From a virus (lineage: Duplodnaviria > Caudoviricetes), in the IMG/VR virus record IMGVR_UViG_3300023283_000212, positions 1 to 46,905 of that record: DNA of 46,905 bases; one strand, given 5' to 3'. A model generated the notes under the pieces. It made no database searches. It had not been told where the DNA came from and saw only the letters and a program-made list of their open reading frames with translations. The first letter of the stretch is position 1; each line of letters starts with the position of its first letter. This document shows, one piece after another, positions 6,101 through 33,351 of the stretch. Both the position numbers and the translations under genes were made by a program.

Positions 6101-7260
6101 GGCTGTTCCGCTTCACCAACCCAATAACCGGGGAGGAAGAGCTGCTGCGGATTCCGCGGCCCTTCGACCACGGACAACTCTTCTCGGCCAGCGTGGAAGC
6201 GATGGCCGACGCCTGGTACCGCGAGGACCCCGAGGCGGTGACCGGGTGGATGGAGGTGTTTCGGGCTACTGCCACCCCGCCGCTGGCTCCGGCGTTGGTC
6301 GAAGAGGCCTTCGAGCAGGCGCTCAACTACGACGTCTTCTGGGAGCGGCCGATCGTACCGCGCGCCTACCAGGGGCAGTACGCGAGCCAGCAGTACAACG
6401 AGTACACGACCCGAGCGGCCCGCGCGCTCGCGAATCTGTCGGGCCAAGACCGCCTCAGCCCGATGCGGATCGACCACGCCATCCGCGGCCTGGCCGGTCC
6501 CCTCTCGCGCGACGTGCTGGAGACGGCCGGCACGCTCGGGATTCCGGTCGGACCCGATAAAGCGCTGGGCTGGAGCGAGATGGCCGACACGCCGGTCTTC
6601 GGCCGGCTGTTCCGCCGCGGGGGACCGCGGGGCTCGGGCGGCAAAAGCATCGACGCACTGTACGACCTGGCCGAGCGGCTCGACAAGCGCGGCAGGTCGC
6701 TCGAAGAGTCGCCCGACGAGCGGCGGCAGCGGCTCGCGATCGATGATGCGGTTACGGCGGTCAGCGCCCTGTTGCAGCTCCGCAAAGACGTGCGGCCGGG
6801 GCAGCCGCGGGCCGAACTGGTGAAGGAGGCCACGCGCATTGCGCAGGATGCGTTGCGGGCGGCCGGCACGCCGGAGCAGGCACCGGCGGAGCTCGATCGC
6901 GAGCCACTGCGGTATCTGCGCCGCAGCGCCGAAGCGCGGCGCAGAGCGGCACAACTCAAGCCGGGCGAGCGGCAGCCGGTGATCGTCGAAGCGGTCGGAG
7001 TGCTCGCCCGCCCGATCCCCTTGAGCGTCACCGCGCGCGAGCGCGAGGCGGGCCTCACGATCACCGAGAAACAGCGGAAGTGGAGAAACGACCGGAAGGT
7101 CGCCACCGAAACGCTCCGGCGGCTCGGCGTGACGCCGCGGGAGGCGATCGCCGACTTTGCCCGCTCGCTGCGAGGCGGTGAGCGGGCCCGACTGGAAAGG
7201 GCAAAACGTGGAGTCGCTCGAGCCTTTCGCGAGGCGGGGAATCGGGGCGATGGCCAGTGA
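1..7260 (+). CDS. C-terminal 2,419 aa of a giant polyvalent virion/ejection protein (begins at 45225 and wraps); zincin-like HExxH motifs, C-terminal LPD38-like domain
   Basis: Open frame from base 1. HELAH at 376-390 and HEIGH at 3916-3930. 'FIPFFNAAIQG...LLRIPRPFDHG...NYDVFWERPIVP...SPMRIDHAIRG' resembles LPD38. It is the last gene of a podovirus-type structural block. Confidence 0.8.
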   Translation, partial: QPGQQPPDIRGEIEALRAAEQPEQQPPDIRGEIEALRAAEQPGQQIAETFERLARETGVAARRAEPSAEQAEIARLAEAFGRQVVWFEPQQRGRAPKGFHDSRRPGTVFLNSQNTDRQSLYGILGHELAHDTGADLEAEFPEGLLAEALESYLGEANPRYAARVRRDPVIARKEAAARLIERFFEDDAFRAQVRRAEPDLWERIQALLERLLAWFRRAPQTEADRAVREALRVMRGKLDESAERPQEQPEPQSERREQPPRKEKVAAAETARKRQRHQIEEQVRREERMLREFFGKDLELAGDLARKPYFQSRLEAALEDLPERPLALDELLGTLRKRGAKKAELEFADFPTLYALRGKRKLPKGQLAAWLAGHRLRVETETLRDKQMRGQGPGYRERGTENLREILLTWPDAPAPLLGMHHRRSDVLAYVRVGDRRGADGEKVLYLENLQSDHEQAPAPKLQTPFARDWIPLALKRLLAEAADEGYDAVSWTSAEVQKERWRNVVTGGGAKWLEILYDEKIPGFLRKYSRQWGGKIEPVKTASGSGRAKFTTIDGAEIGIVGQPDRSANGRIETASVHYDIPGIGRGAMGVDRAELEEGRSGRTAAFERLLLTALERYEQDPESFSERVTNSVTRLGLRLTDQMRAALRHQPQILLASDAAGSLEGLPEEIAAALENLADYLYHVDGKTGRHNFRQALSERLGDGVLPYADVLWEHAQKTEIVEPAEPQPDDAPRMIVWDEHGGFDVSRVPPDVARDILAERDQWLGSPEAKQLKEVLEERSQLGEAEPREIPEADEARKLRALRDDAEHKLEEAKREHERQLSRRTKEIARERGVPKGRKANSLSKLKKYQPAIDAAERAARRDSEVQAAARAEQSALAEFEEFASAVAEQERQQQIAEHQRLVREHGEKKPGEILVNLRIPGDAIRIERWNPKQGKYLVDRGNFLESTGEFFPHTNTNVPVGETAYAVFRLYGTPDEARRRQAIDKQIIQAEREAANWRAEANRRAAEQRKDAEYAALFSETSPVKATLAKLLPAERQVAATFRGAPAIATQHWALWGDVPKKIRARHLHLVEKRGYAPLRSPENAVQLEDLLGDLEQSAAEALELVGYLRPEDAPKGWPWALLTDGERLLAVSAPYYDYLTAQGYTFAAGDAAFAAAGVRFVELHRNGELQGVLAPLGIGDEISLAQAERWKKRASEGSGKSLNMAADEARPDPVLPGAPQETPPTHDGPRRLTAPGPGEEDVTPISAPEVVEAIRQVAAAFGREIPLRVGRLGKRASLGVYKVEPMVARIRRALDSSTAAHEIGHAVEHIVFGWPQGGPWRLPLVDRRIQRELVELGKLLYGERKPAGGYKREGFAEFMRLWVENRELARSEAPRFARWFENVFLEAFPAARDAIDLARDAFTRWEKQGSYERGRQGIVELTFPERIRRWRRKFLDPLKWIEQGLEMLDPLARLEVQAEQLLDRKLKHDERAYLRGSALRMTHAPIVRRWVEQGITDFHGRPNGPSLDQIRSLVSQRERWDFLVYLWARRGLRMLRDERGPRDPGLSEADAQQIVREAEADPKRRVRWRLAAREVYDWNEGVLDYAAQASPAFADVVRRIRARDPGEYIPLSRVFDELDETYARSGGGASARLATLGGSLRGSARRIKEPFAQMIANAERIVYAAHQRHVLDAILALARVPGMGRVIEEVPVEQRPAAARTIGQLLEEINRRLAPAASAQVGGEIDSEALAQMITFFAPADRPKGADPIVPLYQDGKVRWYYLEDSLFRSLGSLEIWRVQQTGALGLILRGLGAHNRFVKAGITTLRASFAVANTIRDAGVYFFNTMERNPILAALSLLSGHAQVIWSALPGTTETKLVRLIKDRGGEIAPRLGQDIPHTRRAARRVFGWRVRDLPSNAFDAYRTLIGLPELGPRVAEAQNYLRSIGFTWDGSRELTVQESQEMMVAYKQVTTDFTAAGELARTLNQFIPFFNAAIQGPRALVRAARRDPAAMAARVLSVAALTLLYWWQKKDEEWYREIDDHSKYLYWLFRFTNPITGEEELLRIPRPFDHGQLFSASVEAMADAWYREDPEAVTGWMEVFRATATPPLAPALVEEAFEQALNYDVFWERPIVPRAYQGQYASQQYNEYTTRAARALANLSGQDRLSPMRIDHAIRGLAGPLSRDVLETAGTLGIPVGPDKALGWSEMADTPVFGRLFRRGGPRGSGGKSIDALYDLAERLDKRGRSLEESPDERRQRLAIDDAVTAVSALLQLRKDVRPGQPRAELVKEATRIAQDALRAAGTPEQAPAELDREPLRYLRRSAEARRRAAQLKPGERQPVIVEAVGVLARPIPLSVTAREREAGLTITEKQRKWRNDRKVATETLRRLGVTPREAIADFARSLRGGERARLERAKRGVARAFREAGNRGDGQ

Positions 7261-7522
7261 GGTACGGCAACTGTTCGCCCGGATGGACGCGCAACAGGGC
7301 CTCACCGGCTTGGCGTGGGTCGTCTTCTGCGGCGTGACGATCTGGGTCGGGGTGACCGTCCAGCAGATGAGCATCACGCTGGCCGGCATGCAGCAGGAAC
7401 TGCGGCACCACTCGAGGCTGTTGGGCGAACGAGCCGACAGCGAGACCGTCCAGGAACTGCGGGCCGAGGTGCTGCGTCTGCGAACGCGGATCTCGGCCCT
7501 CGAAAGAAGCCCGCCGCGCTAA
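7250..7522 (+). CDS. Small membrane protein with coiled coil (holin-like candidate)
   Basis: MASEVRQ...; one hydrophobic segment LAWVVFCGVTIWVGVTV followed by a heptad-rich tail. It overlaps the end of the giant ORF. Confidence 0.55.
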   Translation: MASEVRQLFARMDAQQGLTGLAWVVFCGVTIWVGVTVQQMSITLAGMQQELRHHSRLLGERADSETVQELRAEVLRLRTRISALERSPPR

Positions 7523-7710
7523 GCGTCCTGCCGCGCGGTGGGGGGAGTGGAAGTCGGTCCGGAGACGACCACGAGCCGAATCCGGCATCATCCCTGACGC
7601 CGGTAACCGGACTCTGACCCAAAATAAACCCTTTGTCCAGACTTTTCCCGCCAAAATTTTCACTAGCACGGCATAGGATGGGGCAAGAATGCCCAGAGAA
7701 TATGCCGCGC

Positions 7711-7761
7711 GGACATCGGATTCTCAGTCCGAAGACAGGGGTTCGACTCCCCTAGGGGGCG
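7711..7761 (+). mobile_element. attP core: 3' portion of tRNA-Glu(CTC)
   Basis: Anticodon arm TCGGA-TTCTCAG-TCCGA, T-arm AGGGG-TTCGACT-CCCCT and 3' acceptor strand AGGGGGC are present. There is no matching 5' acceptor strand or D-arm upstream. It lies upstream of a tyrosine integrase. Confidence 0.8.
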
Positions 7762-8452
7762 CTTAAAAGGGGTGTCGTCGGATTGGTAGTCCGATGACAT
7801 TCGCGGGCGGCTTCACAGGCAGAGAACGGATGAGCATCATGCCCGAAGGCAATCCGAGGCCCAAGATGTTGCGGGAGGATTTCGCGGGGTCCGCCCACGG
7901 TGCGGTGGATCGTGTTTCTCGTCGTGCTCTTCGCCCAGACACACAGAAGACCAAACGAGCGAAAGGACCTGATGGGCCGCGCAGGTGAGCGGGAGGGGAA
8001 GCCCCCGTATCACTGACGCACATCAGTTTTGGACGGCACCTGCGCGGCCCGGCAGATCCTTTCAAAAGTTTTTTTCGCGCGCAACTCGCGACGACCAACC
8101 ACGTTCGCGTGCCGCTGGCCGGCGGGAACGAAATTCTTGGCGCCGCAGCGCTTGACGTGCGCCGCCCGGGCCGCTTATCTTGGAAGCCGTCCAAAATAGA
8201 TGTGCGTTTCGCCCCCTCTCGGGCACTCCGCGACCAGCCACTTTTTCCAGTGGCGCACGCTGTCGCTGACCGAGGCCGGTGTGACGCACACATTGGCCGG
8301 TCGGAGCACATCCCGGCTTGGGCCGGTCAGCCCAGCGGAGCTACTTGCAGCACCGCCGGCGGCGCAGGTTTTTCGTACCGGGCCTGCGCTGCCTGGCGGG
8401 TGCTTGTCGCTCCGCAGAGCACGGAGTGCTGCGTCATGTCCCGCGATAGGAT

Positions 8453-8515
8453 CGGTCAGCCGCTTGTTTTTCCCGCTGCGGGCGCCGCCGGGAGGACGGC
8501 GAAAAAGGCTGACCG
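8453..8515 (+). promoter_or_regulatory. Long hairpin directly upstream of the integrase start codon
   Basis: CGGTCAGCC...TTTTTC pairs with GAAAAA-GGCTGACCG, ending 2 nt before ATG 8518. Confidence 0.5.
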
Positions 8516-8517
8516 CC

Positions 8518-9447
8518 ATGAATCTCCCTTCCCTACTCGCCCGTTTCGCGACGGAAAATCCGCGCCTCGATTCGCACCGCTCGGTCGAGGAGTACCGTTC
8601 GACGGTGCGCGTCTTTTGCCGCTGGTGGCGCACGCGGGGCGAAACCGCCGAGCCGCGCATCGCCGATCTGACCGATGCGGCGATCGCCGAGTGGCTGCGC
8701 GCTTTGGACGCGGCCGAGTACGCCCGGCCGACGATCAACAAGCACCGCCGGCAACTGGTGGCGCTGCTCGGCTGGGCCTGGGCCGAACACCTGCTGGCCG
8801 CGCCGCCCCGGGTGAAAAAGTACACCGAGCCCCGGCGCTGCCGGTCCGCCTTTACGCCCCGAGAGTTCCAGGAGCTCCTCGATGCGGCCGGGCGTCGCGA
8901 CGGGTATGTGGGGGGCGTGCCGGCCGGGATCTTCTGGCAGGCGCTGCTCTCGACGATTGCGACCTCGGGCGGGCGAATCAACGCAGTGATGCTCTCCCGT
9001 CGCGCGGAGTTCGACCCGCAGCGGCGGACGCTGCGGCTGGACTGCAAAGTCCAGAAGCAGCAGGCCGATCAAGTCTTCGTCCTTCCACCCACGACCGCAG
9101 CCGTGCTCGGGCGTTTGATCGCGATGCACGAGCAGGAACGGATTTTCGGTTGCTGGCCGCACGATGCGCGTCGTGGGTGGAAGACGTTGACCCGCCACTA
9201 CCGGCACATTCTGCAGGCCGCCGGACTGCCGCACCGCTCGCGCCGGGACCTCTTCCACAAGATCCGCGCGAGCGTCGCCACCTGGATCGCCGCCGAGCTC
9301 GGCGAGGAGGAAGCCCGCAAGTACCTGGGCCATTCGAACGTGCGCGTGACGCGCAGCTATCTCGATCTCTCGCAGCTCCCGAGCATCCGCGACCTGTCGG
9401 GCGTGTTGCCGCAGTTCGAGGTGGGCGACGTGCGGCTGGTGGGGTGA
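8518..9447 (+). CDS. int: Tyrosine recombinase / phage integrase
   Basis: SAM-like N-terminus; catalytic R (SGGRINAV), HxxR (FHKIR), LGH and Y (TRSY). Confidence 0.9.
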   Translation: MNLPSLLARFATENPRLDSHRSVEEYRSTVRVFCRWWRTRGETAEPRIADLTDAAIAEWLRALDAAEYARPTINKHRRQLVALLGWAWAEHLLAAPPRVKKYTEPRRCRSAFTPREFQELLDAAGRRDGYVGGVPAGIFWQALLSTIATSGGRINAVMLSRRAEFDPQRRTLRLDCKVQKQQADQVFVLPPTTAAVLGRLIAMHEQERIFGCWPHDARRGWKTLTRHYRHILQAAGLPHRSRRDLFHKIRASVATWIAAELGEEEARKYLGHSNVRVTRSYLDLSQLPSIRDLSGVLPQFEVGDVRLVG

Positions 9448-9529
9448 GATGCATGCCGCACAGGGGCCGCGCGAAGCGAGAACGAGATCGTGAGTCCCGG
9501 TCATCACTTTGTTTGCAAAGGAGATTCGG

Positions 9530-9727
9530 ATGCTTGTCGTGACCAGGAAACTGTGGGAGTCGGTGGTGATCGGCGAGGTGACGGTGACGGTCGTGCCGTC
9601 GCAAGGCGCAGGCGTGCGGCTCGCGATCGACGCGCCGCGCGACGTGCCGATTCTCAGAGCGGAGATCGCGGTGCGGGCGGGCGCGGACGGCGGCCGGCGA
9701 GTCGAAGCGGGAGGCTCTTCGCGATGA
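9530..9727 (+). CDS. csrA: Carbon storage regulator CsrA-family RNA-binding protein
   Basis: MLVVTRKLWESVVIGEVTVTV...VRLAIDAPRDVPILRAEI matches the CsrA signature. AAGGAG RBS. Confidence 0.9.
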   Translation: MLVVTRKLWESVVIGEVTVTVVPSQGAGVRLAIDAPRDVPILRAEIAVRAGADGGRRVEAGGSSR

Positions 9728-9924
9728 CCGCCGCGCCGAAAGACACGATTTGCGTGGCCCTCCGCGCGCACGGCGAGCACTGGGTGTTTTTCTTCTCCCC
9801 GCCCGACCGGCGCGAGTTTGTCCGGGCCGCCGCCCGCTGGGCCAGCGATTCGGGTCTCGCCTTCTCCTGGGAGGACGCCGTCCGGGCGATGTTCGCCGCG
9901 AAAAAGGAGATGGCGAGCGACTGA
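9724..9924 (+). CDS. Small conserved hypothetical protein of a type I recall from Planctomycetota
   Basis: ICVALRAHGEHWVFFF...RWASDSGLAFSWEDA; ATGA-coupled to csrA. Family recognition is from memory. Confidence 0.65.
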   Translation: MTAAPKDTICVALRAHGEHWVFFFSPPDRREFVRAAARWASDSGLAFSWEDAVRAMFAAKKEMASD

Positions 9925-9935
9925 TAAGGAGCCGC

Positions 9936-10163
9936 ATGATGCAGACGCATTTGGAGCCGCCAGGTGGCGGCTGGATCGGCGCGGACGATCCGCCGGCGAC
10001 GGGCGAGACGGTGCTGGTCTACTGCCGCAAGTGGGCCGAGCCGATTTGGCTCGCGTTTTTCGACCAGCGCGAATCGCGTTGGCGGCCGGCCGACGTTCCG
10101 GCCGGCACGTTCATCGCCGACCCGACGCACTGGCGGCCGCTGCCCGAGGAGCCGGAGCGATGA
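9936..10163 (+). CDS. DUF551-like phage protein
   Basis: WI...PP...VLVY...PTHWRPLPEEP motif; AAGGAG RBS. Confidence 0.75.
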   Translation: MMQTHLEPPGGGWIGADDPPATGETVLVYCRKWAEPIWLAFFDQRESRWRPADVPAGTFIADPTHWRPLPEEPER

Positions 10164-10594
10164 AAACCAATAACGGGCCGAGCGACCCGCTATCGATCAC
10201 GCAATCCGAGCTCGTGTTTCCCGGCCGACCTAACGGGCCGAGCGACCCGCTATCGATCACGCAATCCGAGCTCGTGTTTCCCGGCCGACCTAACGGGCCG
10301 AGCGACCCGCTATCGATCACGCAATCCGAGCTCGTGTTTCCCGGCCGACCGGTGGTGCAGGTGAGCTGCGTCGCGAGGTTTCGGGTCTGGGAAAGCCGCT
10401 GCGGCCGGTATCGCGTAGTCCACGCGCATGTCACGCTCGGCGAGGACCTTCCGCGCGGCCGGCGGTGGCCCGACCGGTACACGGCGCAGCAGCGAGACGA
10501 GGCGGGCTGGCGCGTTTTGTCGAGGCACCGCAAGCGGACCCGCGCGCTTGCCGCCTGCCGCCGACACGCGGGAAGAAAGCGAGGCCCGGCATGA
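10160..10594 (+). CDS. Hypothetical protein with three 20-aa repeats
   Basis: ATGA-coupled; GGAG RBS; (NGPSDPLSITQSELVFPGRP)x3. Confidence 0.65.
   Translation: MKTNNGPSDPLSITQSELVFPGRPNGPSDPLSITQSELVFPGRPNGPSDPLSITQSELVFPGRPVVQVSCVARFRVWESRCGRYRVVHAHVTLGEDLPRGRRWPDRYTAQQRDEAGWRVLSRHRKRTRALAACRRHAGRKRGPA
10171..10350 (+). repeat. Perfect 60-bp tandem repeat x3
   Basis: Three identical adjacent units with no spacers. Confidence 0.95.
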
Positions 10595-10613
10595 GCGAAC
10601 ACGAAAAACAACC

Positions 10614-10703
10614 AGGCAACGTCCAAGATCACGGGGCGGCCGTGATCGACATTGATTTCAAAACCGACGACGCCGGCCGCTCCCGTGCATCGTTTTGTTC
10701 GCC
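10614..10703 (-). other. attC-like site A (left boundary of the array)
   Basis: AGGCAAC-gtccaa-GATCACGGGGCGGCCG...CGGCCGC-t-CCCGTG-c-ATC-gtttt-GTTCGCC. Confidence 0.8.
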
Positions 10704-10727
10704 GCTTTTTGGCGGAAGGAGTTGACC

Positions 10728-11066
10728 ATGCCCGCACCGAAACAACCATGCCAGACATTGCCGCAGTGGTTGAAACAGAATCTTGGGCCGCGCTGTTTGG
10801 CGCCATTGACCGGAACCGATTCCAAAGCGCTTTCCGCTGCAGTGCAGATTGTTGCGCTGTACGCATACCATCCAGCGCCACAGGTCGCGGAAGCATTCGG
10901 CCTGACCGTGATGCAGATCCAGCAATCGTGTTGGCCGTTGGCGTACCATGCCATCGCGCACGTGATGGACTGGACTGACCGCGGCGAGTTGTGGCGCGAG
11001 GCGAAGTTGCCATCGATTCCAGTTGGCATTTGCAAGTTTGAGTCGCGAGAAGACGTGTTCGTGTAG
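10728..11066 (+). CDS. Cassette hypothetical protein
   Basis: AAGGAG RBS, ATG 10728; stop 2 nt before the next core site. Confidence 0.7.
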   Translation: MPAPKQPCQTLPQWLKQNLGPRCLAPLTGTDSKALSAAVQIVALYAYHPAPQVAEAFGLTVMQIQQSCWPLAYHAIAHVMDWTDRGELWREAKLPSIPVGICKFESREDVFV

Positions 11067-11067
11067 C

Positions 11068-11088
11068 GACGAACTATGATTATCAGGA
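11068..11088 (-). other. Short simple recombination site B
   Basis: GACGAAC-TATGA-TTATCAGG, sharing AACTATGATTATC with site G. Confidence 0.55.
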
Positions 11089-11338
11089 TTTCGCGATGCC
11101 CGGACCAGTCTCAGACTCATGGATGCGACGGCTTGGTGACCTTTTAAGGTCCGGCGGGGTAACGCCCGTGCTAATAGGCTGGCCGTTCAGTTGCTCGCTT
11201 GGACCGAGAGCGGAGGCAGCGCCATGACGCAGCCCTCCGTGGTTAGCAGGAGCCGTGGCGTCAGCGAATCGGTTGGGTACAGCACGGCTTGGCCGCTGGC
11301 ATGCGCTCACTGCTGATGCCAGCCCCGTGTTTTGATGC

Positions 11339-11462
11339 AGAGAACGACTGAGTTCACGCGGCCACGGGCCACGGAGAAAAGACGATGAAACAGACCACAC
11401 GAGAACAACCAGCGTCGAAGCGCGAGGGCGGTAGTGGCTCGGCGTGCAACGATTTGTTATCC
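11339..11462 (-). other. attC-like site C (contains RBS and ATG 11385)
   Basis: AGAGAAC-gactga-GTTCACGCGGCCAC...GTGGCtcgGCGTG-c-AAC-gattt-GTTATCC. Confidence 0.8.
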
Positions 11463-12185
11463 GTCGTCTCGTTTGGCGGCGGAATCAACAGTACGGCGTT
11501 GCTGATAGGTTTACACGAACGCGGGCAGACGCCGGACTTGGTGATGTTCGCAGACACCGGAGGCGAGAAGCCGGAGACATACGAGCACATCGCATTCATG
11601 GTGATTTGGTGCGGCCAGCGAGGAATGCCGATCAGGATTGTTGCGGAAACGCAAACGCTTGAGGACGACTGCCGCAACCGCGAGACGTTGCCAGGTAGGG
11701 TGTTTGGCTTCGGATCGTGCAGCGAGCATTTCAAGATAAGGCCGCAGCGCCGCTACCTGCGCGAACAGGGAATCGACGCCGTAACGTGGTTGGTTGGATT
11801 CCATGCGGGCGAACAGCGGCGAGCATGGAGAGGAGCGACCGGAAACGACACAATCCGATACCCGCTGATCGAATGGGGCTGGCATCAAGAGGATTGCATT
11901 GCCGCGATCAAGCGGCACGGCATGTCCGTGCCCGTGAAGTCCGCCTGCTTTTATTGTCCCTCAATGACGAAACGGGAAGTTCTGCGCTTGCGACGCAGCC
12001 ACCCGGAATTATTTGAGCGGGCGATTGAGATGGAACGCGATGCCATCGAATCCGGGAATCTGCAAACCGTGAAAGGTTTGGGACGCCACTGGAGCTGGGA
12101 ACAGCTGGCGACTGCCGACGCGGCACAATTGCGGTTGTTCGAGGATTGTCAGGTCCCGCTTTGTGACGTGTGTTTCGACGGATAA
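11385..12185 (+). CDS. PAPS reductase (CysH)-like / adenine nucleotide alpha-hydrolase family protein
   Basis: SFGGGINS PP-loop, FADTGGE, YPL and SACFYCP motifs. Confidence 0.85.
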   Translation: MKQTTREQPASKREGGSGSACNDLLSVVSFGGGINSTALLIGLHERGQTPDLVMFADTGGEKPETYEHIAFMVIWCGQRGMPIRIVAETQTLEDDCRNRETLPGRVFGFGSCSEHFKIRPQRRYLREQGIDAVTWLVGFHAGEQRRAWRGATGNDTIRYPLIEWGWHQEDCIAAIKRHGMSVPVKSACFYCPSMTKREVLRLRRSHPELFERAIEMERDAIESGNLQTVKGLGRHWSWEQLATADAAQLRLFEDCQVPLCDVCFDG

Positions 12186-12278
12186 CGACTGAGTTCGCGC
12201 GGCCACGGGCCGGAGAGAAAACGTATGAATGACGAGACGACAAAAAGCGAAGAACCAGCGTCGAAGCGCGAGTTATCC
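12180..12278 (-). other. Decayed attC-like site D (paralog of site C with a 30-nt deletion in the right arm)
   Basis: Left arm is near-identical to site C. The right arm jumps from GCGCGAG to TTATCC. Confidence 0.7.
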
Positions 12279-12809
12279 GTTTTTTCGCGTGAGATCGCGG
12301 AACAAATTGGAGACTGGATCGCACAGGGCCAGCAGTATGCGCAACAAGAGCAGGCCGACGAACCGTACTGGGACCACGTTTGCGCCGAAATTCGCGAGTA
12401 CCTCGATCGAGCGCATGACATTGGATGGCACGCCGCCGCACACGCCGCGATTACCGTTTGCAACGTCCGTGCCGAGCGAGGCGACGACATCGGAACGCCG
12501 CGAAGCAATGAAGCGGCAAAGTGTGGATTGCAGATCGAGGCCGTGTTGGTGACGCACACAATGACGTTGCCGCGCGAATACCAGAGAGACGAGAAGTTGC
12601 CGGCCCCTGTGGGAGGCGATGAGCCGGAGTGCCCACATTGCGGGACCGTGCACGAAATGCCGAAGTGGGTCGAACAGTACCACACGTTCAATTGCGATTG
12701 CGGTTGGGCGTTTCAAGCTGAGCGGGAAACCGTCATTGTGTCGCGACCGCTCGAATACCGTGAGTGGACCAAGGTAACCGGGTTGCCGGACCAACGGAGA
12801 AACCCATGA
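12225..12809 (+). CDS. Cassette hypothetical protein with Zn-ribbon (CPHC...CDC)
   Basis: GGAGAG RBS inside site D. Reads into site E and stops at the ATGA overlap. Confidence 0.7.
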   Translation: MNDETTKSEEPASKRELSVFSREIAEQIGDWIAQGQQYAQQEQADEPYWDHVCAEIREYLDRAHDIGWHAAAHAAITVCNVRAERGDDIGTPRSNEAAKCGLQIEAVLVTHTMTLPREYQRDEKLPAPVGGDEPECPHCGTVHEMPKWVEQYHTFNCDCGWAFQAERETVIVSRPLEYREWTKVTGLPDQRRNP

Positions 12810-12890
12810 ATCAACGGACGATGTACAACGAATCGATTGACGTTGACAAACCGAAAGACGAGGCAACTCCGGTTGACCGCCTTGTTATCC
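12760..12890 (-). other. Decayed attC-like site E (left AAC core lost)
   Basis: gaccaa-GGTAACCGGGTTGCC...GGCAAC-t-CCGGTT-g-ACC-gcctt-GTTATCC. GTG stands where AAC is expected. Confidence 0.7.
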
Positions 12891-13282
12891 TGCCTGTCAA
12901 AGCGGTGACCATCTCCCAGCCGTTTGCATCGTTGATTGCTGACGGTGCCAAGTTTGTTGAGAACCGGACGTGGGAGTGCCGATACCGTGGCCCGATCGCG
13001 ATTCATGCAGGGAAGGGGACGCAGTATCTGGACCGCCGCGAATTGCGGGAATACCCGAACGGCGGAATCGTGGCCGTGGCGAACCTGTTGGCGTGCATGC
13101 CGTTGGATTCGATGCGGCGCATCAGCCGGTCGCAACGCATCCAGCGAACAGAGTTGACGATTGGCGAAGTGCTGGACCATGAACACACGGAAGGTCCGTG
13201 GTGTTGGATTTTGAGCGACGTGAAACCGTGCAAGTTCTTTCCGTGCCGTGGGGCGCAGGGACTGTGGGACTTTGCTGGATAA
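12806..13282 (+). CDS. ASCH domain protein
   Basis: KAVTISQPFASLIADGAKFVENRTW...RGPIAIHAG...GPWCWIL...RGAQGLW. Confidence 0.9.
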   Translation: MNQRTMYNESIDVDKPKDEATPVDRLVILPVKAVTISQPFASLIADGAKFVENRTWECRYRGPIAIHAGKGTQYLDRRELREYPNGGIVAVANLLACMPLDSMRRISRSQRIQRTELTIGEVLDHEHTEGPWCWILSDVKPCKFFPCRGAQGLWDFAG

Positions 13283-13405
13283 CGCTGGTGATAACCGGAC
13301 CACGGACCAACGGAGTTGACGTTGAATGACCAAGGAAGTTGACAACCAGATTGACGGTGGAACTGCCGAGACGGTAGTGGCTCCGTGTTCATCACATTGT
13401 TATGT
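13277..13405 (-). other. attC-like site F (contains RBS and ATG 13326)
   Basis: GGATAAC-gctggt-GATAACCGGACCAC...GTGG-c-TCCG-t-GTT-c-ATC-acatt-GTTATGT. Confidence 0.8.
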
Positions 13406-13940
13406 GCCGTATCGGACAATCTTGATTGATCCCCCGTGGCCGCAAGTGATGAGCGGAAAGTACAAGACAGCGAAGAATCAGCGGGCCGCCGATTTGCCAT
13501 ACAACCCGATGACGCTGGAGGAAATGTTGCGGTTGCCTGTGAAGGCATTGGGCAGTGATGACGCCCATTTATGGCTGTGGACAACCAATCAATTCCTCGA
13601 GGACGGCTTCGTGTTGATGCGTGCATGGGGGTTCAAGTATTTGGCGGCGATCCACGCGATTAAGCCGAACGGGATCGGCAATTACTTCGTGCATCGGACG
13701 CAAACGCTGTTGTTCGGGTACAAGACCAAGTGCAAGTTTCCGTTGGAGCGGTACAAGCCGAACATCATCGAAGTGCCGGACCCAAGGCGGCACAGCGAGA
13801 AGTGGGACGAAACGTATGAGTACATCGAGTCCGTCTCGCCCGGCCCGCGTGTCGAGCTGTTCGCACGCCGGAAACGTCCCGGCTGGGACGTGTGGGGCAA
13901 CGAAGTGGACTCGGACATCGAGTTGGAAGTAGGCACATAA
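13326..13940 (+). CDS. MT-A70 family N6-adenine methyltransferase
   Basis: YRTILIDPPW, HLWLWTTN, AWGFKY, HSEK and ELFARR...GWDVWGNE motifs. Confidence 0.9.
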   Translation: MTKEVDNQIDGGTAETVVAPCSSHCYVPYRTILIDPPWPQVMSGKYKTAKNQRAADLPYNPMTLEEMLRLPVKALGSDDAHLWLWTTNQFLEDGFVLMRAWGFKYLAAIHAIKPNGIGNYFVHRTQTLLFGYKTKCKFPLERYKPNIIEVPDPRRHSEKWDETYEYIESVSPGPRVELFARRKRPGWDVWGNEVDSDIELEVGT

Positions 13941-13955
13941 CTATGATTATCCAGC
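13935..13955 (-). other. Short simple recombination site G (contains ATG 13943)
   Basis: ACATAAC-TATGA-TTATCCAGC. TTATCCAGC is the complement of this cassette's end GCTGGATAA. Confidence 0.65.
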
Positions 13956-14254
13956 CGTTTCCACCGCGAGACGGCAACGAATGGGATTGCCAGTGCGCCC
14001 GTTGCGGATCGTCCGCAGATTGGCGGGAGTGTGAATCGTGCGACGAGGACGGCTTTGACGGGCACGATTGCGGCGAGGATTGCTGCATGTGCCTGTGTCC
14101 AAAAGAAAACGTTCCGTGCCAGTTTTGCGACGGCCACGGCGGAGATTATTGGTGCCTATCATCGCGCGAGTGGTGTGAGGCGAATCCACTAGAAGGACGA
14201 GAGCAAATCGAGCGAGGACAGATCGAGTGGTTCCGTGTCCGTGATGCTGGATAA
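13943..14254 (+). CDS. Cys-rich Zn-finger cassette protein
   Basis: Multiple CxxC motifs; TAA lies in the core of site H. Confidence 0.75.
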   Translation: MIIQPFPPRDGNEWDCQCARCGSSADWRECESCDEDGFDGHDCGEDCCMCLCPKENVPCQFCDGHGGDYWCLSSREWCEANPLEGREQIERGQIEWFRVRDAG

Positions 14255-14338
14255 CGACCAGCGTAACCGGGACCGCCCGGTTGACGTGGAATACAGAGTT
14301 GACGCGGAGGCGGTCTCCGGTTGACGCATTTGTTCTTC
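14249..14338 (-). other. attC-like site H
   Basis: GGATAAC-gaccag-CGTAACCGGGACCGCC...GGCGGTC-t-CCGGTT-g-ACG-cattt-GTTCTTC. Confidence 0.85.
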
Positions 14339-14354
14339 AGTTTTTGGTGACGAT

Positions 14355-14798
14355 ATGCGAAAAGCGAGACTGATAGAAGACGCCGAAAACGACGTCGTCC
14401 ACGGCAATGGTCGGGAGCAGATTCGAGCATTGTGTGAGCGTGCTCGATTCCAATCCGAGTGGTATTCAGTGCGTTGGAAACGGCTGCATGAATATCTTCG
14501 CGACCATGCGGACCAAGACACGTTCGAGCGATCCTGTAACATCATGGCGAACGGAACTGCCGACTCGATGGAACCGCCAACGTACGGGCAGATTTTGAAT
14601 GTGTTGCAGCAGGCCATCGAGCAGTCGATAGCGTTGGCAGATACGGGCAGCCATGCCCACAAATCGCGGTTCGATCCGGATGGCGTTGGCGAAATTCCTC
14701 CGGGTTGGCGAGTGGTTGAAGCGATGACGGAACGACTCAAGGACGGGCTGAAATGGGGGACGTCGCTGATGCGGCGATCCACGAGCACTGTTGACTGA
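14355..14798 (+). CDS. Cassette hypothetical protein
   Basis: The ORF fills the interval between sites H and I. Confidence 0.7.
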   Translation: MRKARLIEDAENDVVHGNGREQIRALCERARFQSEWYSVRWKRLHEYLRDHADQDTFERSCNIMANGTADSMEPPTYGQILNVLQQAIEQSIALADTGSHAHKSRFDPDGVGEIPPGWRVVEAMTERLKDGLKWGTSLMRRSTSTVD

Positions 14799-14882
14799 AG
14801 AACGTTTCGGATCACCGGGCGGAAAGAAAGCTATGAGTACAGAAACAGCGTTGCCCGCTCCGGTGCATCCGGCTGGTTATGT
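14797..14882 (-). other. attC-like site I (contains ATG 14833)
   Basis: GAAGAAC-gtttc-GGATCACCGGGCGG...CCGC-t-CCGGTG-c-ATCC-ggctg-GTTATGT. Confidence 0.8.
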
Positions 14883-15243
14883 GCCGCATCCGTTGCGTGT
14901 GCAGCGAAAGCGGACCAAGGGATTCCGGTTGCAATCAGGCGTCATTTGCGTGACAAGGCCCGGCCCGTGGGGAAACCCGTTCAAGATGCAGTCAGCACTC
15001 GAAGCGGGCTACGCGAACACCGAAGCCGAGGCCCGTGCGTTGTGCGTCGAGTGTTTCGAGGATTGGCTGTTAAAAGGTGACCTTTCCGAGTGGTGGTTTG
15101 GTGCAAGCCGTGAATCGTGGATGTGGATGCGAGAGAACTTGTCAACGCTGGCGAGTCAGAAGGTGGCGTGCTTCTGTCCGCTGGATCGTCCGTGTCACGC
15201 CGACGTGCTGGCAAAGTGGGCACCGATGGCGTGTCCGTTTTAG
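14833..15243 (+). CDS. DUF4326 domain protein
   Basis: RVQRKRTKG...VTRPGPWGNPF...ACFCPLDRPCHADVL. Confidence 0.85.
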   Translation: MSTETALPAPVHPAGYVPHPLRVQRKRTKGFRLQSGVICVTRPGPWGNPFKMQSALEAGYANTEAEARALCVECFEDWLLKGDLSEWWFGASRESWMWMRENLSTLASQKVACFCPLDRPCHADVLAKWAPMACPF

Positions 15244-15245
15244 GC

Positions 15246-15265
15246 ACATAACTTGGTCGTTATGC
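15246..15265 (-). other. Short simple site J (copy of terminal site N)
   Basis: ACATAAC-TTGGTC-GTTATGC. Confidence 0.65.
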
Positions 15266-15377
15266 CGCAAGTTGCCGAGGTTGCTAAGCGAGTTGCCAAG
15301 CGGAGTTTTGGTGGACGGAAAAAAGTGAGCAGGCGAGGCGTAACTACCTGAAAGAGTCCCAGCTTACGGCCGCCGAG
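15249..15377 (+). repeat. Internal copy of the array's right boundary and the 5' part of the replication gene (16953-17175)
   Basis: Near-identical sequence. It has a single copy of the upstream duplicated unit and lacks 21 nt between two GTTGCCAAG repeats, which removes the ATG. Confidence 0.9.
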
Positions 15378-15437
15378 GTCGATCAGGATTGGCCCAACGA
15401 TGACAAGTTGGATGATTTTCTGATCCGGCAACAGTCC

Positions 15438-15569
15438 ACATAACGTTAAAGATCACCGGGCACATGGCCCAACGGGATAGGCGATGGAACAACCAAACAA
15501 CGTAGCCGAAGGATTGGACGTGGAAACGCCGGAAGACGAATGTGCTCCGTGTGCATCGCCTTGTTATCG
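15438..15569 (-). other. attC-like site K (contains ATG 15484)
   Basis: ACATAAC-gttaaa-GATCACCGGGCACAT...ATGTGC-t-CCG-t-GTG-c-ATC-gcctt-GTTATCG. Confidence 0.85.
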
Positions 15570-15672
15570 GGATTCTCGGACGCGGATTCAGCGATTGTTG
15601 AATTACAAACGATACATTGATTGGTTAATTGAAAAGGAGCTGGAAAATGTGGACAGGCAACGACACGCTTGA
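15484..15672 (+). CDS. Small cassette protein (first of two genes in cassette K)
   Basis: Starts inside the attC-like loop, like neighbouring cassette genes. Confidence 0.5.
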   Translation: MEQPNNVAEGLDVETPEDECAPCASPCYRDSRTRIQRLLNYKRYIDWLIEKELENVDRQRHA

Positions 15673-16189
15673 CGCTTTGCGATCGAAGGCAGCGTCGATG
15701 ACGACGGGAACCATTTGCGTGAACATTGAGCAACTGAATGGGTTTGGCCGCGTTCTCCGGGTCTCGGAAGAGATCATCGAAGAGGCCAAAGAGACGCGTA
15801 CATGGCCAGACAAGCGGATCAGCGCAAAGCTGTTGTACGAGCTTCAGGACGCGCTCAAGGCGTGCGGGAACATGGCGAAGAAATTGAAACACGCACCGGA
15901 GGAACTGTGCGGTGAGAGTCTGCGGTATTTTCGGGACGGAAACATGATGTGCTGTGTGTTCGGCGACTTCGAGAACTTGCAGGAAAGTCCAGCAGGTTTT
16001 GGAAAAACGGACGACGAAGCGTATGAAGACTTGAAGCAGCAGATCGTGTGTGAGACGTGTGGCGGCGATGGTCGTGTTCCGGTGACGAATACGTGGTCTG
16101 TGGACCGTGGCACGAAGTTTCGGCGTGATTACGAGGAACAAGTTACGGGAGAATGCCCAGCGTGTCACGGCGTTGGGTTTTCCCGATAA
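15647..16189 (+). CDS. Cassette hypothetical protein with DnaJ-type CxxCxGxG motifs
   Basis: AAGGAG RBS; CETCGGDG and CPACHGVG; TAA lies in the core of site L. Confidence 0.75.
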   Translation: MWTGNDTLDALRSKAASMTTGTICVNIEQLNGFGRVLRVSEEIIEEAKETRTWPDKRISAKLLYELQDALKACGNMAKKLKHAPEELCGESLRYFRDGNMMCCVFGDFENLQESPAGFGKTDDEAYEDLKQQIVCETCGGDGRVPVTNTWSVDRGTKFRRDYEEQVTGECPACHGVGFSR

Positions 16190-16274
16190 CGACTGAGGTC
16201 AGCGGGCGGCGGCCGTTGACTTTGATTTCATGTGCAGCGTCAACCGCCGCTCCGTCTGCACCGTTTTGTTATCT
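16184..16274 (-). other. attC-like site L
   Basis: CGATAAC-gactga-GGTCAGCGGGCGGCGG...CCGCCGC-t-CCG-t-CTG-c-ACC-gtttt-GTTATCT. Confidence 0.85.
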
Positions 16275-16286
16275 GCGGATCATGCA

Positions 16287-16628
16287 ATGAGCAACCTACG
16301 AAGCGACTGCCGCGACCTTGTGAAAGACCGTGAAGCCGGGGACGTTTGGCGAACACATATCGAGCGACTGTGCTACCAGATCGACGAAGTTGAGGAACGC
16401 TGGCACGCAGCAGAGCGGAAGTTGAACGCCGCCCGTGAGGCGTTGGAGCAGATCGTATGCACGGAAGGCGAAGACCGTGGCGTGGTAATGGTCGATCACG
16501 AAAGCCCGACACGGTACGACTCGGAGCGAAAATGTCAGGTGTATTTGTGCGAGAACTTTTCGCCGCTGGGGGACGCTTTGATTTCATTGTGGGATGGACT
16601 TCAACGCGACGTTGAGTTGAGCAGATAA
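16287..16628 (+). CDS. Cassette hypothetical protein (coiled coil); alternative start 16230 inside site L
   Basis: The ORF fills the L-M interval; TAA lies in the core of site M. Confidence 0.7.
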   Translation: MSNLRSDCRDLVKDREAGDVWRTHIERLCYQIDEVEERWHAAERKLNAAREALEQIVCTEGEDRGVVMVDHESPTRYDSERKCQVYLCENFSPLGDALISLWDGLQRDVELSR

Positions 16629-16713
16629 CGTCCAAGGTCACCGGGCCGCCGCCAGTGACCTCGAACTTGAATTAACGCGCCGTCGGCGGCTCCGGTGCAC
16701 CGTTTTGTTATCC
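16623..16713 (-). other. attC-like site M
   Basis: AGATAAC-gtccaa-GGTCACCGGGCCGCCG...CGGCGGC-t-CCGGTG-c-ACC-gtttt-GTTATCC. Confidence 0.85.
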
Positions 16714-16722
16714 GGATTTCAC

Positions 16723-16956
16723 ATGGCGACTACGAGAACACCACCGACGTTTCAGTTTGATGAGCGATCAGTGCTGAAGTGTCCGGGCTGTCAGACACCG
16801 CTGAAGCGAGTGCGTCAGACAGGCGGCATGATGTTGAACGATGATCAGTTTGACGCGATCAAAGCGGGCGACTTCTATTGCGATCAGTGTCCGGGCGATC
16901 GCGGCAAGTCAGGTTTGCGATACTTTTGGAAGGCCGAGTTGGGGATTGACGGATAA
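16723..16956 (+). CDS. Small Zn-ribbon cassette protein
   Basis: CPGC...CDQC; TAA lies in the core of site N. Confidence 0.7.
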   Translation: MATTRTPPTFQFDERSVLKCPGCQTPLKRVRQTGGMMLNDDQFDAIKAGDFYCDQCPGDRGKSGLRYFWKAELGIDG

Positions 16957-16970
16957 CTTGGTCGTTATGC
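16951..16970 (-). other. Terminal simple site N, candidate attI-like insertion point
   Basis: GGATAAC-TTGGTC-GTTATGC: two inverted cores 6 nt apart. It sits at the array end that is 5' in attC orientation. Confidence 0.6.
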
Positions 16971-17605
16971 CGCAAGTTGCCGAGGTTGCTGAGCGAGTTG
17001 CCAAGCTATGGACGGCAGTTTCCAAGCGGAGTTTTGTTATGCCGCAAGTTGCCGAGGTTGCTAAGCGAGTTGCCAAGCTATGGATGGCAGTTGCCAAGCG
17101 GAGTTTTGGTGGACGGAAAAAAGTGAGCAGGCGAGGCGTAACTACCTGAAAGAGTCCCAGCTTACGGCCGCCGAGATCGAGCTGTTGGTGATCTTGGGGG
17201 GCTGTGGAAAAGTTGTCCGCAGAGACGGCAACTGGCTGGTTGCCAAGGTTGCCAAGCGTGAGTTTGCCGGCCGGGGATTCGCGGCCGAAACGCTCCGCAA
17301 GGCGGCTGTCCGACTGTCCGAGTCCGAGTCCGCGCTGGTCCGAATCGAGCCGGGAAAAGGCGGAAAACCCAGCGTTTATTGGGTTGATTGCGGCCGCCTG
17401 TCCGAGTTGTCCGAGCTGCCGCGAGCGAGTTTCGCCGGCGGGAAAAAATTTCCGCCGCCGGAGCTTGGCAACTCGCTTGGCAACCTTGGCAACTCGCTAC
17501 CCCGTGTAAAAGAAACAAGCGCATTACGCCGTGCATCCGTGAACCGTGAACCGTGCGCTCGTGCGGGAGCAAGCCGCGTGCCGGTTGCCGAGCCGGTTGC
17601 CAAGA
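16964..17605. repeat. GTTGCC(A/G)AG iteron-like repeats and a 72-bp duplication; putative replication origin
   Basis: Many direct copies in 16976-17256 and 17584-17604. Inverted copies CTTGGCAAC at 17464, 17476 and 17485 lie inside the rep-like gene. Confidence 0.6.
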
Positions 17606-17979
17606 TCGACGACATCGACGACATCGACGGCCTCGGGGCGATCCTTAGATCGGATCGCCCCTGGTCGGATCTCCGCGACTGGCACGTGAGGACCGGGGAC
17701 CTGAGGCTCGCCCGACTACTGTACGCACACAGTGGGCAGACGGGGCAACTGGCAGAGCAGGGATACGCGAAGCTGTTCCTGGCGCAGTTTCACCACTGCG
17801 CAAATCTGCGGAAGGCGCACATACGCGATCCGAACCGCAGCGACGGGCAGGGGGGACGCCACAACGCGGCGGCGATCCTGGCGTCGCTCGTACGCAGCGG
17901 CCGGCGAGATGTGATCCAAAACGCCTCCTGGGAGTGGGCCGAATCGCAACTGCGCCGCCGGCAGCCGGTCGAAGATTGA
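17080..17979 (+). CDS. Putative replication initiator (winged-helix-like N-terminus, internal iterons)
   Basis: wHTH-like 'AETLRKAAVRLSES...VRIEPGKGGKPSVYWVD' followed by a low-complexity repeat-bearing linker, as in lambda O-like initiators. Confidence 0.5.
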   Translation: MDGSCQAEFWWTEKSEQARRNYLKESQLTAAEIELLVILGGCGKVVRRDGNWLVAKVAKREFAGRGFAAETLRKAAVRLSESESALVRIEPGKGGKPSVYWVDCGRLSELSELPRASFAGGKKFPPPELGNSLGNLGNSLPRVKETSALRRASVNREPCARAGASRVPVAEPVAKIDDIDDIDGLGAILRSDRPWSDLRDWHVRTGDLRLARLLYAHSGQTGQLAEQGYAKLFLAQFHHCANLRKAHIRDPNRSDGQGGRHNAAAILASLVRSGRRDVIQNASWEWAESQLRRRQPVED

Positions 17980-25875: not shown

Positions 25876-26496
25876 ATGGAGAGCAAAGCGCAACTCCGCA
25901 AGCGGCTGATCGACGAAGGGCGGTGGGAGGATTTCACGGCGGCCCGCGAGCGGCTCAAAGCCGAAGGGCAATCGTCCGCCGAAGCGCACCGGGGCGCCGT
26001 GGAGCTATTTCCGCCGCTGACCGCGAGCCAGCGGGCCGAAGCCGACCAGGCCGCGCGCGAGAGCCACCAGGCTCTCGCCGAGCTGGTCGCGGCGGTGCGG
26101 CGGAGGCCGGCCGACGCCGCGAATACGGACCTGCGGCAGCGGGCGGTCGCCGAGTGGGTCTTCGAGCACGCGCAGGTGGACCTCGCCGCGATCGAGGCGG
26201 CCGACGTGCCGAGCTGCGGGGCGCTCGGCCTGCTCGTCTGGGTCCAAACCAGCCCGGCCAACTACGGGGCGTTCCTCTCCCAGATCTGGAGCAAGCTGCT
26301 GCCGACCCGGCAGCAGATCGAACAGACCAACCGGTATACCGATGACGGCCGTGGGCTCGAACAACTCGATCAATTCGAGCAGGCCTGGAGCGAGGAGCGC
26401 GCCGCCGGCGTCGCGGGCCCCAAAGCGGCTGGGCCAGAACCTGGCGTATCGCAGAGCGCTGTTAAGCTGGGCGACGACCCCCGACCGCCAGCGTGA
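25876..26496 (+). CDS. Putative terminase small subunit
   Basis: Helical protein immediately upstream of, and overlapping, terL. Confidence 0.5.
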   Translation: MESKAQLRKRLIDEGRWEDFTAARERLKAEGQSSAEAHRGAVELFPPLTASQRAEADQAARESHQALAELVAAVRRRPADAANTDLRQRAVAEWVFEHAQVDLAAIEAADVPSCGALGLLVWVQTSPANYGAFLSQIWSKLLPTRQQIEQTNRYTDDGRGLEQLDQFEQAWSEERAAGVAGPKAAGPEPGVSQSAVKLGDDPRPPA

Positions 26497-32310: not shown

Positions 32311-33351
32311 GTGGCCACCCTCCAAGACTCGGACATTGCCGACCTGATCAAATCCACGAGAGCGGATGAAGGCGTCGGCAGGTTCAACGAAATCGCCAGC
32401 CGGCTCACCCACTACGAGGTGATGAGCCGGATGATGAAGACCGACAAGCAGGAGTTCCAGGCCGGCAGGAAGGTCCAGGGCAACCTGCTGGTGAACCACA
32501 GCTTTAGCGCCAAGCAGGTCGGCCTGCACGAGGTGATCGAGCCGACGATCGACGATCTGTTCGAGCAATTCGAAGTTCCCTGGCGGCACACCAACTGCAA
32601 TTGGAGCTGGGAGCGCCGCGAAGGGCTGATGAACCGCTCGGCGCAGCAGATCTTCAACATGATCGACGGCCGCCGCGTCGCCGCGATGATCTCGCTGTTC
32701 GAACATCTCGAGACGCAGTTCTGGACCGCCCCGACCGATTCGGACAACGCGCTGGACTGGTACGGCATCCCGTACTGGGTCGTCAAGGCGACCAGCGACA
32801 CGGCCGGGTTCAACGGCGGGAACCCGACCGGATTTTCCGACGGGGCCGGCAGCATCAACTCGGATACCCACACGCGGTGGGCCAACTGGAACGCCCAGTA
32901 CACCGACGTGACCGAGGACGACCTGCTGCGGGAGCTGCGCAAAGCCTGCCGCCGGACCGACTTCAAAAGCCCGGTCGATTTCGAAGACTACTCGAACGGC
33001 GGCGGCCAGCAGCGGCGGATTTACATGAACGAGGAGACCATCGACGCGATGGAATCGGACATGCGCACCCGCAACGACAACCACTCGGACCTCGCGCAGT
33101 ACTACGGCGCGACGACCTTCAAGCGGCACCCACTGAGGTACGTGCCGAAGCTCAACGACGACACGCAGAACCCGGTCTACTGCCTGAATTTCGAGTGGCT
33201 CGCGCTGGTCTTCCTTTCGGGGGACTTCCTCTACGAGCACGACCCGGAAAAGAGCCCCAATCAGCCGAACACGTGGGTCGTACATACCGACCTTACCGGC
33301 AACGTGCTCTGCACCAACCGGCGGATGCAGGCGGTCATCAACAAAGCGTAA
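32311..33351 (+). CDS. Major capsid protein
   Basis: 346 aa after the scaffold; HK97-like pattern (EVPWRH, YGIPYW, YVPKL, GNVLCTNRR); GGAG RBS. Confidence 0.8.
   Translation: MATLQDSDIADLIKSTRADEGVGRFNEIASRLTHYEVMSRMMKTDKQEFQAGRKVQGNLLVNHSFSAKQVGLHEVIEPTIDDLFEQFEVPWRHTNCNWSWERREGLMNRSAQQIFNMIDGRRVAAMISLFEHLETQFWTAPTDSDNALDWYGIPYWVVKATSDTAGFNGGNPTGFSDGAGSINSDTHTRWANWNAQYTDVTEDDLLRELRKACRRTDFKSPVDFEDYSNGGGQQRRIYMNEETIDAMESDMRTRNDNHSDLAQYYGATTFKRHPLRYVPKLNDDTQNPVYCLNFEWLALVFLSGDFLYEHDPEKSPNQPNTWVVHTDLTGNVLCTNRRMQAVINKA

Follow-up and report, generated by a model that had tools for sequence, protein, structure and literature searches.

An attC cassette array with inverted genes in a tailed phage, rearranged at its AAC cores in a wild population and likely served by an integron integrase acting in trans

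Introduction

This article describes an array of integron-type gene cassettes carried by a tailed phage, in which the genes run backward with respect to their attC recombination sites and which has been rearranged at the AAC cores of these sites in the wild, likely by an integron integrase (IntI) provided in trans by a host that likely belongs to the Planctomycetota; the probability assigned to this reading is about 0.72. The window, that is, the whole stretch of DNA analyzed (46,905 nucleotides), is the entire IMG/VR record IMGVR_UViG_3300023283_000212, which has direct terminal repeats and is 100% complete, and the array occupies positions 10614-16970. A sequence-only reading had proposed here a phage-borne, integrase-less, integron-like array. 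The attC-type sites and the array itself proved real, the shuffling is supported and is apparently still going on; that reading missed that the + strand is the attC sites' bottom strand and that the genes are inverted, and clusters of this kind were already published, as the available text of Qi 2023 indicates (PMC9892861).

Phage attC clusters have so far been read mainly as passengers, possibly ferrying cassettes between bacteria. In the present array the phage-type cargo, a layout that fits phage transcription and an order and content that differ at the cut site among members of one phage population together point to use by the phage. The arrangement departs from the rule by which genes in cassettes point away from attI.

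Recombination sites of the array

The long sites read on the + strand as AAC, 6 nt, left arm, loop, right arm, 3 nt, 5 nt and GTT, and the right arm has an unpaired T and, 6-7 nt further, an unpaired C or G, which confirms at its place the layout with bulged T and bulged C/G that had been seen in the letters alone. The bottom strands assayed in Qi 2023 show this layout too (PMC9892861). The extrahelical bases sit where they do in the bottom strands of the validated aadA7 and TJE1 sites and mark + as the bottom strand. The ten imperfect hairpins counted earlier are all present, eight of them complete, with AAC and GTT cores separated by 6 and 5 nt from paired L arms, as in attC sites, and two defective: the site at 12180 has lost its right arm, and the site at 12759, with GTG instead of AAC, is predicted to be unable to recombine. 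The four interspersed short simple sites were also found (AAC at 11072, 13939, 15250 and 16955); a 10-mer that two of them, the short TATG sites, have in common is present in the loops of some planctomycete attC sites and absent from the attI regions compared.

A layout detector run on both strands of 10601-17000 gave seven matches on + and one on -, against a mean of 0.06 (maximum 1, both strands) in 50 dinucleotide shuffles. A covariance model was built from 30 attC sites aligned from arrays adjoining IntI in Planctomycetota (two poorly aligned rows were retained); it is the analysis's own and not that of IntegronFinder, is biased to planctomycetes and has a rough E-value calibration. This check, which had been suggested beforehand, returned nine window sites, all on + and all within 10614-16713, with 26.6-81.3 bits and E up to 3.4e-4, and no other place in the phage genome exceeded 14.3 bits in the scan, the next-best matches being two simple sites of the terminal type on - with 14 bits. 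Folding energy gives weaker support (z <= -2 in five of the ten long sites, between 0 and -1.5 in the other five). A candidate eleventh site at 11157-11278 was dropped, with no covariance match and z +0.79.

As had been stated, the array is integrase-less: the complete phage genome holds no IntI (0 matches to TIGR02249), the gene that a complete integron would include. With nine matches of one polarity on + within 6.1 kb, the array is, by the tests that could be run, an attC-site cluster that lacks an integron integrase (CALIN), and neither a canonical cassette array nor a complete integron; it behaves like an integron with its genes turned round.

Cassettes and inverted genes

Each cassette on + consists of C, attC body, GTT, gene and AA. 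The ends of ten cassettes, compared as the bases following GTT on the left and those preceding AAC on the right, are complementary as in cassettes derived from circles, with 65 of 70 bases pairing (permutation mean 37.5, p 5e-6), and the three bases outside the 7-bp core pair at 26 of 30 positions (p 1e-5); within the present-day sites only 1-6 of 7 bases pair. Three units were left out of this test, namely the one ending at the site without AAC, the internal simple-site copy (4/7) and a 271-bp unit (4/7).

In canonical cassettes the gene lies on the top strand, points away from attI and has its attC behind it; here + is the bottom strand, and every one of the 12 genes is on +. Four of the inverted genes have family matches on +, seven genes end with the TAA that the following core provides, and the stops of another three lie no more than 7 bases from that core. 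The orientation in the window rests on these family matches and stop codons; the script used to count strands elsewhere is noisy and called four inverted gaps in an ordinary chromosomal integron (L148), so that its totals are indicative only: in bacterial integrons, where intI is on the bottom strand and the genes are opposite, 65 gaps were divided into 35 canonical, 2 inverted and 28 undecided, and in other viral loci with the site motif 13 gaps were inverted, 5 canonical and 8 undecided.

A Shine-Dalgarno (SD) sequence and an ATG that open the next gene are present in 5 of the 10 long window sites, in 7 of 54 sites in other viral loci and in 0 of 72 bacterial sites, the last value being partly expected because bacterial cassette genes run the opposite way. 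The first ~28 residues of the MT-A70 methyltransferase of the array are encoded by an attC site, and its relatives mostly align from residue 27-29. Among 80 viral MT-A70 loci, four have a match to the planctomycete-biased model, two of them directly upstream on the strand of the gene. A 64% homolog of the Cys-rich gene at 13943-14254, which is mobile, lies in an ordinary phage operon without attC match and offers a handle on the origin of cassettes.

Since the genes of the array face attI, the cassette promoter of integrons (Pc) could not express them; a sigma-70 search for a Pc-like promoter gave no match on - and matches at chance level on +.

Rearrangement in public sequencing runs

Four public runs of one study (X1-X4) contain the stretch, and X1 may be the source of the window. 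Their contigs give eight joints, five of them at AAC cores. One leads from the MT-A70 to the DUF4326 cassette (13938>14801; depth 38.2 in X2 and 12.9 in X1; 3 shared bases), another connects 14249>16185 (X2, depth 29.3; 9 shared bases), and a third leads from the DUF4326 to the Cys-rich cassette (15240>13930; seen in X3 and, by loose ends, in X1 and X2; 13 shared bases). The fourth joins 14800>16955 or the copy at 15250 (X4, depth 3.1; 3 shared bases). In the fifth, read at 95% likeness, 16957 is followed by 828 unknown bases and then by the simple site (depth 31.3 in X2; 9.8 in X1), and a direct form without the insertion is present in X1 at depth 12.7. All five lie at left AAC cores, in keeping with the crossover between A and C in attC recombination, the exact bond being hidden within the shared bases. 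The gain, loss or reordering with breakpoints at AA|C that the earlier reading had said to look for in related phages was in this way found in a near-identical phage of another sample.

The X2 form differs from the window by 4 bases in 11 kb, yet its array is reordered, with three new joints and a new cassette of ~844 bp at the terminal attI-like site. Its main order is MT-A70, DUF4326, Cys-rich, the 16287 gene, the 16723 gene, the new cassette and the terminal site, along a path that is continuous across contigs of depth 29-39, and window-like pieces are still present there with a depth of 6-9. Both defective sites fall within the left part, 10321-13938, a stretch that X1 and X2 each show as a single contig without change.

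In every rearrangement the site body stays with the gene to its right, which is what cleavage of the bottom strand at AA|C predicts; the available text of Nivina 2016 places the cut between A and C of the AAC in R' on that strand (PMC5027507). No joint was found at the GTT ends, and none in the 17-nt repeat common to the right arms at 16257 and 16696. A single path of standard reactions would yield all the joints, in this or another direction and order: DUF4326 would be excised between 14801 and the internal simple site and reinserted at the simple site at 13939, a further excision would occur between 14253 and 16188, and a cassette would be captured at 16955.

Source of the integrase and proposed mechanism

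In genomes of GTDB scanned with the site motif at least 127 loci were found, of which 80 are listed; among the matches listed, 61 of 80 (some loci overlap) are titled Planctomycetota. IntI scored above the cut-off in 4 of 5 motif-bearing genomes tested, matching attC sites adjoin intact IntI genes in Planctomycetota, and the arms of the window sites are closest to chromosomal attC sites of this phylum. The site family and the intact IntI genes point to a likely Planctomycetota host, and since the phage has no IntI of its own, the IntI of the host is the likely recombinase. A large Pirellulales chromosomal array (L281, region 5265-5857) lies beside an intI in two pieces.

A search with a planctomycete IntI query found 44 viral-contig loci with IntI relatives. 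One of them (L265, IMGVR_UViG_3300033074_001918, 4146-10987) has a capsid gene, an IntI of 347 bits (cut-off 265) and 12 model matches upstream of it; its phage genes, PAPS-like cargo among them, lie on the bottom strand and run the way intI does. It looks like the complete form of the inverted-array system and links IntI with the inverted layout in one further phage. No match to the terminase family PF03237 was found in five viral records, including this one.

As in bacterial integrons, the + strand would, in the proposed mechanism, fold and be cleaved between A and C; cassettes would leave as circles and enter again at simple sites. The simple site that ends the array (16951-16970) would act as attI, so that newcomers would arrive on the right, and the left half, which has decayed, would stay fixed. 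The inverted genes would be read from a phage promoter on the left and not from an integron Pc, many sites supplying ribosome-binding site and start codon and the TAA of the core supplying the stop. It may be speculated that SOS induction of IntI, cited in the available text of Qi 2023 (PMC9892861), coincides with induction of the phage.

A more general proposal, to which slightly less than an even chance is given, is that phages run a reversed integron, in which early genes are made into cassettes with attC-borne ribosome-binding site and start codon, are docked at a half-attC attI, and are reshuffled and extended by a stress-induced host IntI faster than point mutations accumulate. If true, phages would have made the adaptation machine of the host into a generator of their own diversity, and the array would be a natural system in which to watch cassettes arise from ordinary genes.

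The putative terminal acceptor site

Short hairpin-less acceptors that receive cassettes at AA|C are known from attI1* hybrid sites. The AAC of the terminal simple site is the point behind which the 828 new bases stand in X1 and X2, and from this one insertion the site is inferred to be used by IntI. The half of it that stays fixed matches the L'-spacer-R' portion of an attC with reversed polarity, and the site is unlike the attI regions compared in host-type integrons. The same 17-mer ends ordinary attC sites in two viral contigs (L002 and L003); as an attC half elsewhere, with host attI regions that differ, it was rejected as a host attI.

Each of these two contigs has an array of its own. 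L002 (IMGVR_UViG_3300010396_000203, 4500-6312), the early region of a phage, has inverted genes, a head that resembles attI and five short attC sites whose sequence type is different. L003 (IMGVR_UViG_3300037882_001652, 1900-11929) has 17 model matches, and its cassettes are in part inverted and in part, as it appears, canonical, which suggests exchange with the bacterial cassette pool.

The internal copy of the terminal site, with ~130 bp of the DNA downstream of it, is crossed at its right junction (15382) by an X1 contig at depth 18; we infer a merger of two arrays through an illegitimate crossover.

Weighing of the evidence and alternative explanations

Several observations count against the reading of a cassette array rearranged by an IntI in trans. 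All joints were read from contigs assembled for four samples, which belong to a single study and may include the source of the window; the joint in X4 is supported by just 24 bases at depth 3.1. Three of the eight joints are not at cores: 11388>12862 (depth 28, where the phage is few-fold), 11820>18715 (21 bases) and one at an edge; three rows of a further joint table are also off the cores. We take these, tentatively, to reflect other organisms, a match over 21 bases and an effect of the edge. Contigs cannot reveal free circles, and the 828 bases of the new cassette are known by their number only. No hairpin belongs to the mobile cassette 13941-14254, and the search for promoters gave none that is convincing (2 matches, 2.1 expected). 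Relatives that share the backbone were not found among viral and metagenome contigs with the 17080-17979 protein, nor with the 16705-16956 protein, near-identical records possibly lying outside the searched set.

As a separate observation, a contig of depth ~28 in X3 and X4, far above the phage there, has a long attC-like site with SD and ATG in its loop that matches window 11359-11388 and 12862-12890; another genome in these samples shares the long-loop site type.

The same cassettes and the same cut site would also be expected if IntI came from a co-infecting phage or another mobile element and not from the host chromosome. The 44 viral loci with IntI relatives, and the phage with IntI directly after an inverted array, speak for such a donor, but the layout detector finds two or more sites in only 4 of the 44, the arms of the window sites are nearest to chromosomal Planctomycetota attC and IntI is intact in four of five such genomes; a mobile donor is held improbable. 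It is likewise improbable that the array is a relic made by IntI in an ancestor, with alternative orders that reflect long co-existing strains or paths of the assembly and no current activity. The two defective long sites and the unchanged left part would fit a relic; contigs are graph paths, and the 72-nt tandem duplication at 16964-17107, a single unit in the contigs of X1 and X2, means that in one place or more the window shows a local assembly variant or a minority variant. However, the 4 base differences in 11 kb of X2 stand against three new joints and a new cassette, in X1 a form that has the insertion (depth 9.8) occurs beside one that lacks it (12.7), and each main joint lies inside a single contig.

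Least probable, and given little credence, is the joining of short homologies at the conserved cores by a phage enzyme, either the tyrosine integrase at 8200-9447 or an unrecognized annealing protein. That integrase gene is 1.2 kb from the array, and the joints that share 9 and 13 bases would be usable by short-homology recombination, which weighs against IntI as well. On the other hand, two joints share only 3 bases, the longer 17-base right-arm repeat has no joint (a weak point, as contigs drop rare forms), and the bulges and spacers are retained as IntI requires. The integrase itself (+ strand) is an ordinary phage tyrosine integrase outside the array (phrog_1), without TIGR02249 match; it has no significant alignment to IntI and none across the IntI insertion, and its best relatives are 36-41% identical. 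Recombination of the cassettes by an IntI in trans, likely from a Planctomycetota host, is the reading retained.

Gene content of the array

The cargo consists of 12 small accessory genes, all on +, and its phage character, claimed from the sequence alone, is upheld by Pfam matches of the PAPS-reductase-like, ASCH, MT-A70 and DUF4326 proteins, each with a PHROG family. The array opens with a complete attC, S1 (10614-10703, +, the recombining bottom strand; 76.7 bits; bulged T and C), followed by a hypothetical protein of 112 amino acids (aa) without Pfam or PHROG match (open frame 10728-11066, +) and by a short simple site without hairpin (11068-11085; AAC, TATG, ATT), after which a 271-bp unit has no clear gene. 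A complete attC with a long loop (11339-11462, +, 38.7 bits) holds the SD and ATG of the PAPS-reductase-like protein (11385-12185, +; PF01507, phrog_424), whose stop is the TAA of the next core. That core belongs to the attC without right arm (12180-12278, +), which has SD and ATG in its loop, no model match and 20 nt in common with the site at 11339, and precedes a hypothetical protein of 194 aa with CxxC motifs and no family match (12225-12809, +). The attC with GTG (12759-12890, +, 30.7 bits) contains in its loop the start of the ASCH-domain protein (12806-13282, +; PF04266, phrog_3193).

After it a complete attC (13277-13405, +, 26.6 bits) supplies SD and ATG in its loop before the MT-A70 family DNA methyltransferase (13326-13940, +; PF05063 from residue 29, phrog_359). 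The short simple site at 13935-13952, which includes the ATG of the next gene and is a breakpoint in two joints, is likely an attI-type acceptor; it is followed by the Cys-rich protein of 103 aa that moved in X2 (13943-14254, +). Next come a complete attC used as a breakpoint (14249-14338, +, 56.8 bits; bulged T and G) with a hypothetical protein of 147 aa (14355-14798, +), missing from the main X2 form, and a complete attC, also a breakpoint, with a 6-nt right spacer and SD and ATG in its loop (14797-14882, +, 47 bits), with the DUF4326 protein that moved in X2 (14833-15243, +; PF14216, phrog_464). The internal copy of the terminal simple site with ~130 bp of its rightward DNA, joined to a gene tail, occupies 15246-15382 (repeat D3, 91%). 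A complete long-loop attC (15438-15569, +, 35.7 bits) heads a two-gene cassette (15484-16189, +) missing from the main X2 form, which encodes proteins of 62 aa (15484-15672) and of 180 aa with CxxC motifs (15647-16189). Complete attC sites at 16184-16274 (+, 64.5 bits; a breakpoint) and 16623-16713 (+, 81.3 bits) precede a hypothetical protein of 113 aa (16287-16628, +) and a small CxxC protein of 77 aa (16723-16956, +), and the array ends with the attI-like terminal simple site (16951-16970; AAC, 6 nt, GTT).

Phage genome and setting of the array

The phage encodes a terminase large subunit (26342-28150, PHROG match); PHROG searches also matched a tail protein and, weakly, a major-head protein (32311-33351), and a Pfam search gave a weak portal match. 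No tRNA was found in the genome. The array lies between the integrase region and the gene for a 299-aa protein without known family (17080-17979), and its GC content per kb is 54-59% (11001-17000) compared with 63-75% in the remaining 1-kb bins. A 2336-aa large polyvalent protein with an LPD38 domain is encoded at 250-7260, and a CsrA-like translational regulator just upstream of the array (9509-9727). Just left of the array a gene contains, in frame, three identical 60-nt tandem copies (10171-10350); X1 and X2 contigs break at both edges of this repeat, and its copy number is that of the window assembly only.

The duplication at 16964-17107 is rich in GTTGCC and has a 36-nt inverted match at 17462-17497, within the 299-aa gene. 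The GTTGCC repeats right of the array were considered as accessory sites of IntI; as they match inverted repeats inside the next gene, repeats of a replication origin are at least as likely, and those near the insertion site are possibly such an origin.

Comparison with known systems

Among the loci compared, no cassettes of the window were shared with other loci at the DNA level; only site-level and 67-74% MT-A70 matches were found. Sedentary chromosomal integrons of Planctomycetota (L163/L227, L229-L232, L234) share with the window the arms, spacers, bulges and end complementarity of their sites, but intI is present in them and most of their genes are on the top strand, unlike in the window. 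On whole-cassette inversion, the available text of Nivina 2016 states that promoter-facing cassettes were never seen in mobile or chromosomal integrons (PMC5027507). The double-stranded acceptors attI and attG, the latter described in the available part of a preprint (bioRxiv 10.1101/2022.09.11.507474), resemble the terminal site in being short and hairpin-less, with cassettes entering at AA|C; unlike them, the terminal site is half of an opposite-facing attC.

In a literature search, mostly of open-access papers, no paper was found on inverted phage cassette arrays or on reordering in a wild phage population. The closest known systems are the 17 phage CALINs that the available text of Qi 2023 reports (PMC9892861), with 5 of 6 tested sites recombined by IntI1: like the window they have attC in a phage, no intI and DNA methyltransferase cargo. 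The arrays of TJE1 and PH101 are typical in layout according to the same text. The lab-validated TJE1 site parses in the same way as the window sites, but TJE1 is canonical and the window genes are all inverted. In one member of that set (L236, MW202573, 2069-3738) the bottom strand and the annotated genes appear to be both on + (weak matches, 15-23 bits), so that the inverted layout may already be present there, without being pointed out in the available text. The arrays listed in that text have 2-4 sites, compared with nine model matches plus simple sites in the window, and the text available shows no natural gain, loss or reordering, unlike the window array. Integrase-less phage attC clusters being already known from that work, as far as its available text goes, what the present array adds is direct evidence of cassette shuffling and capture in a wild phage population.

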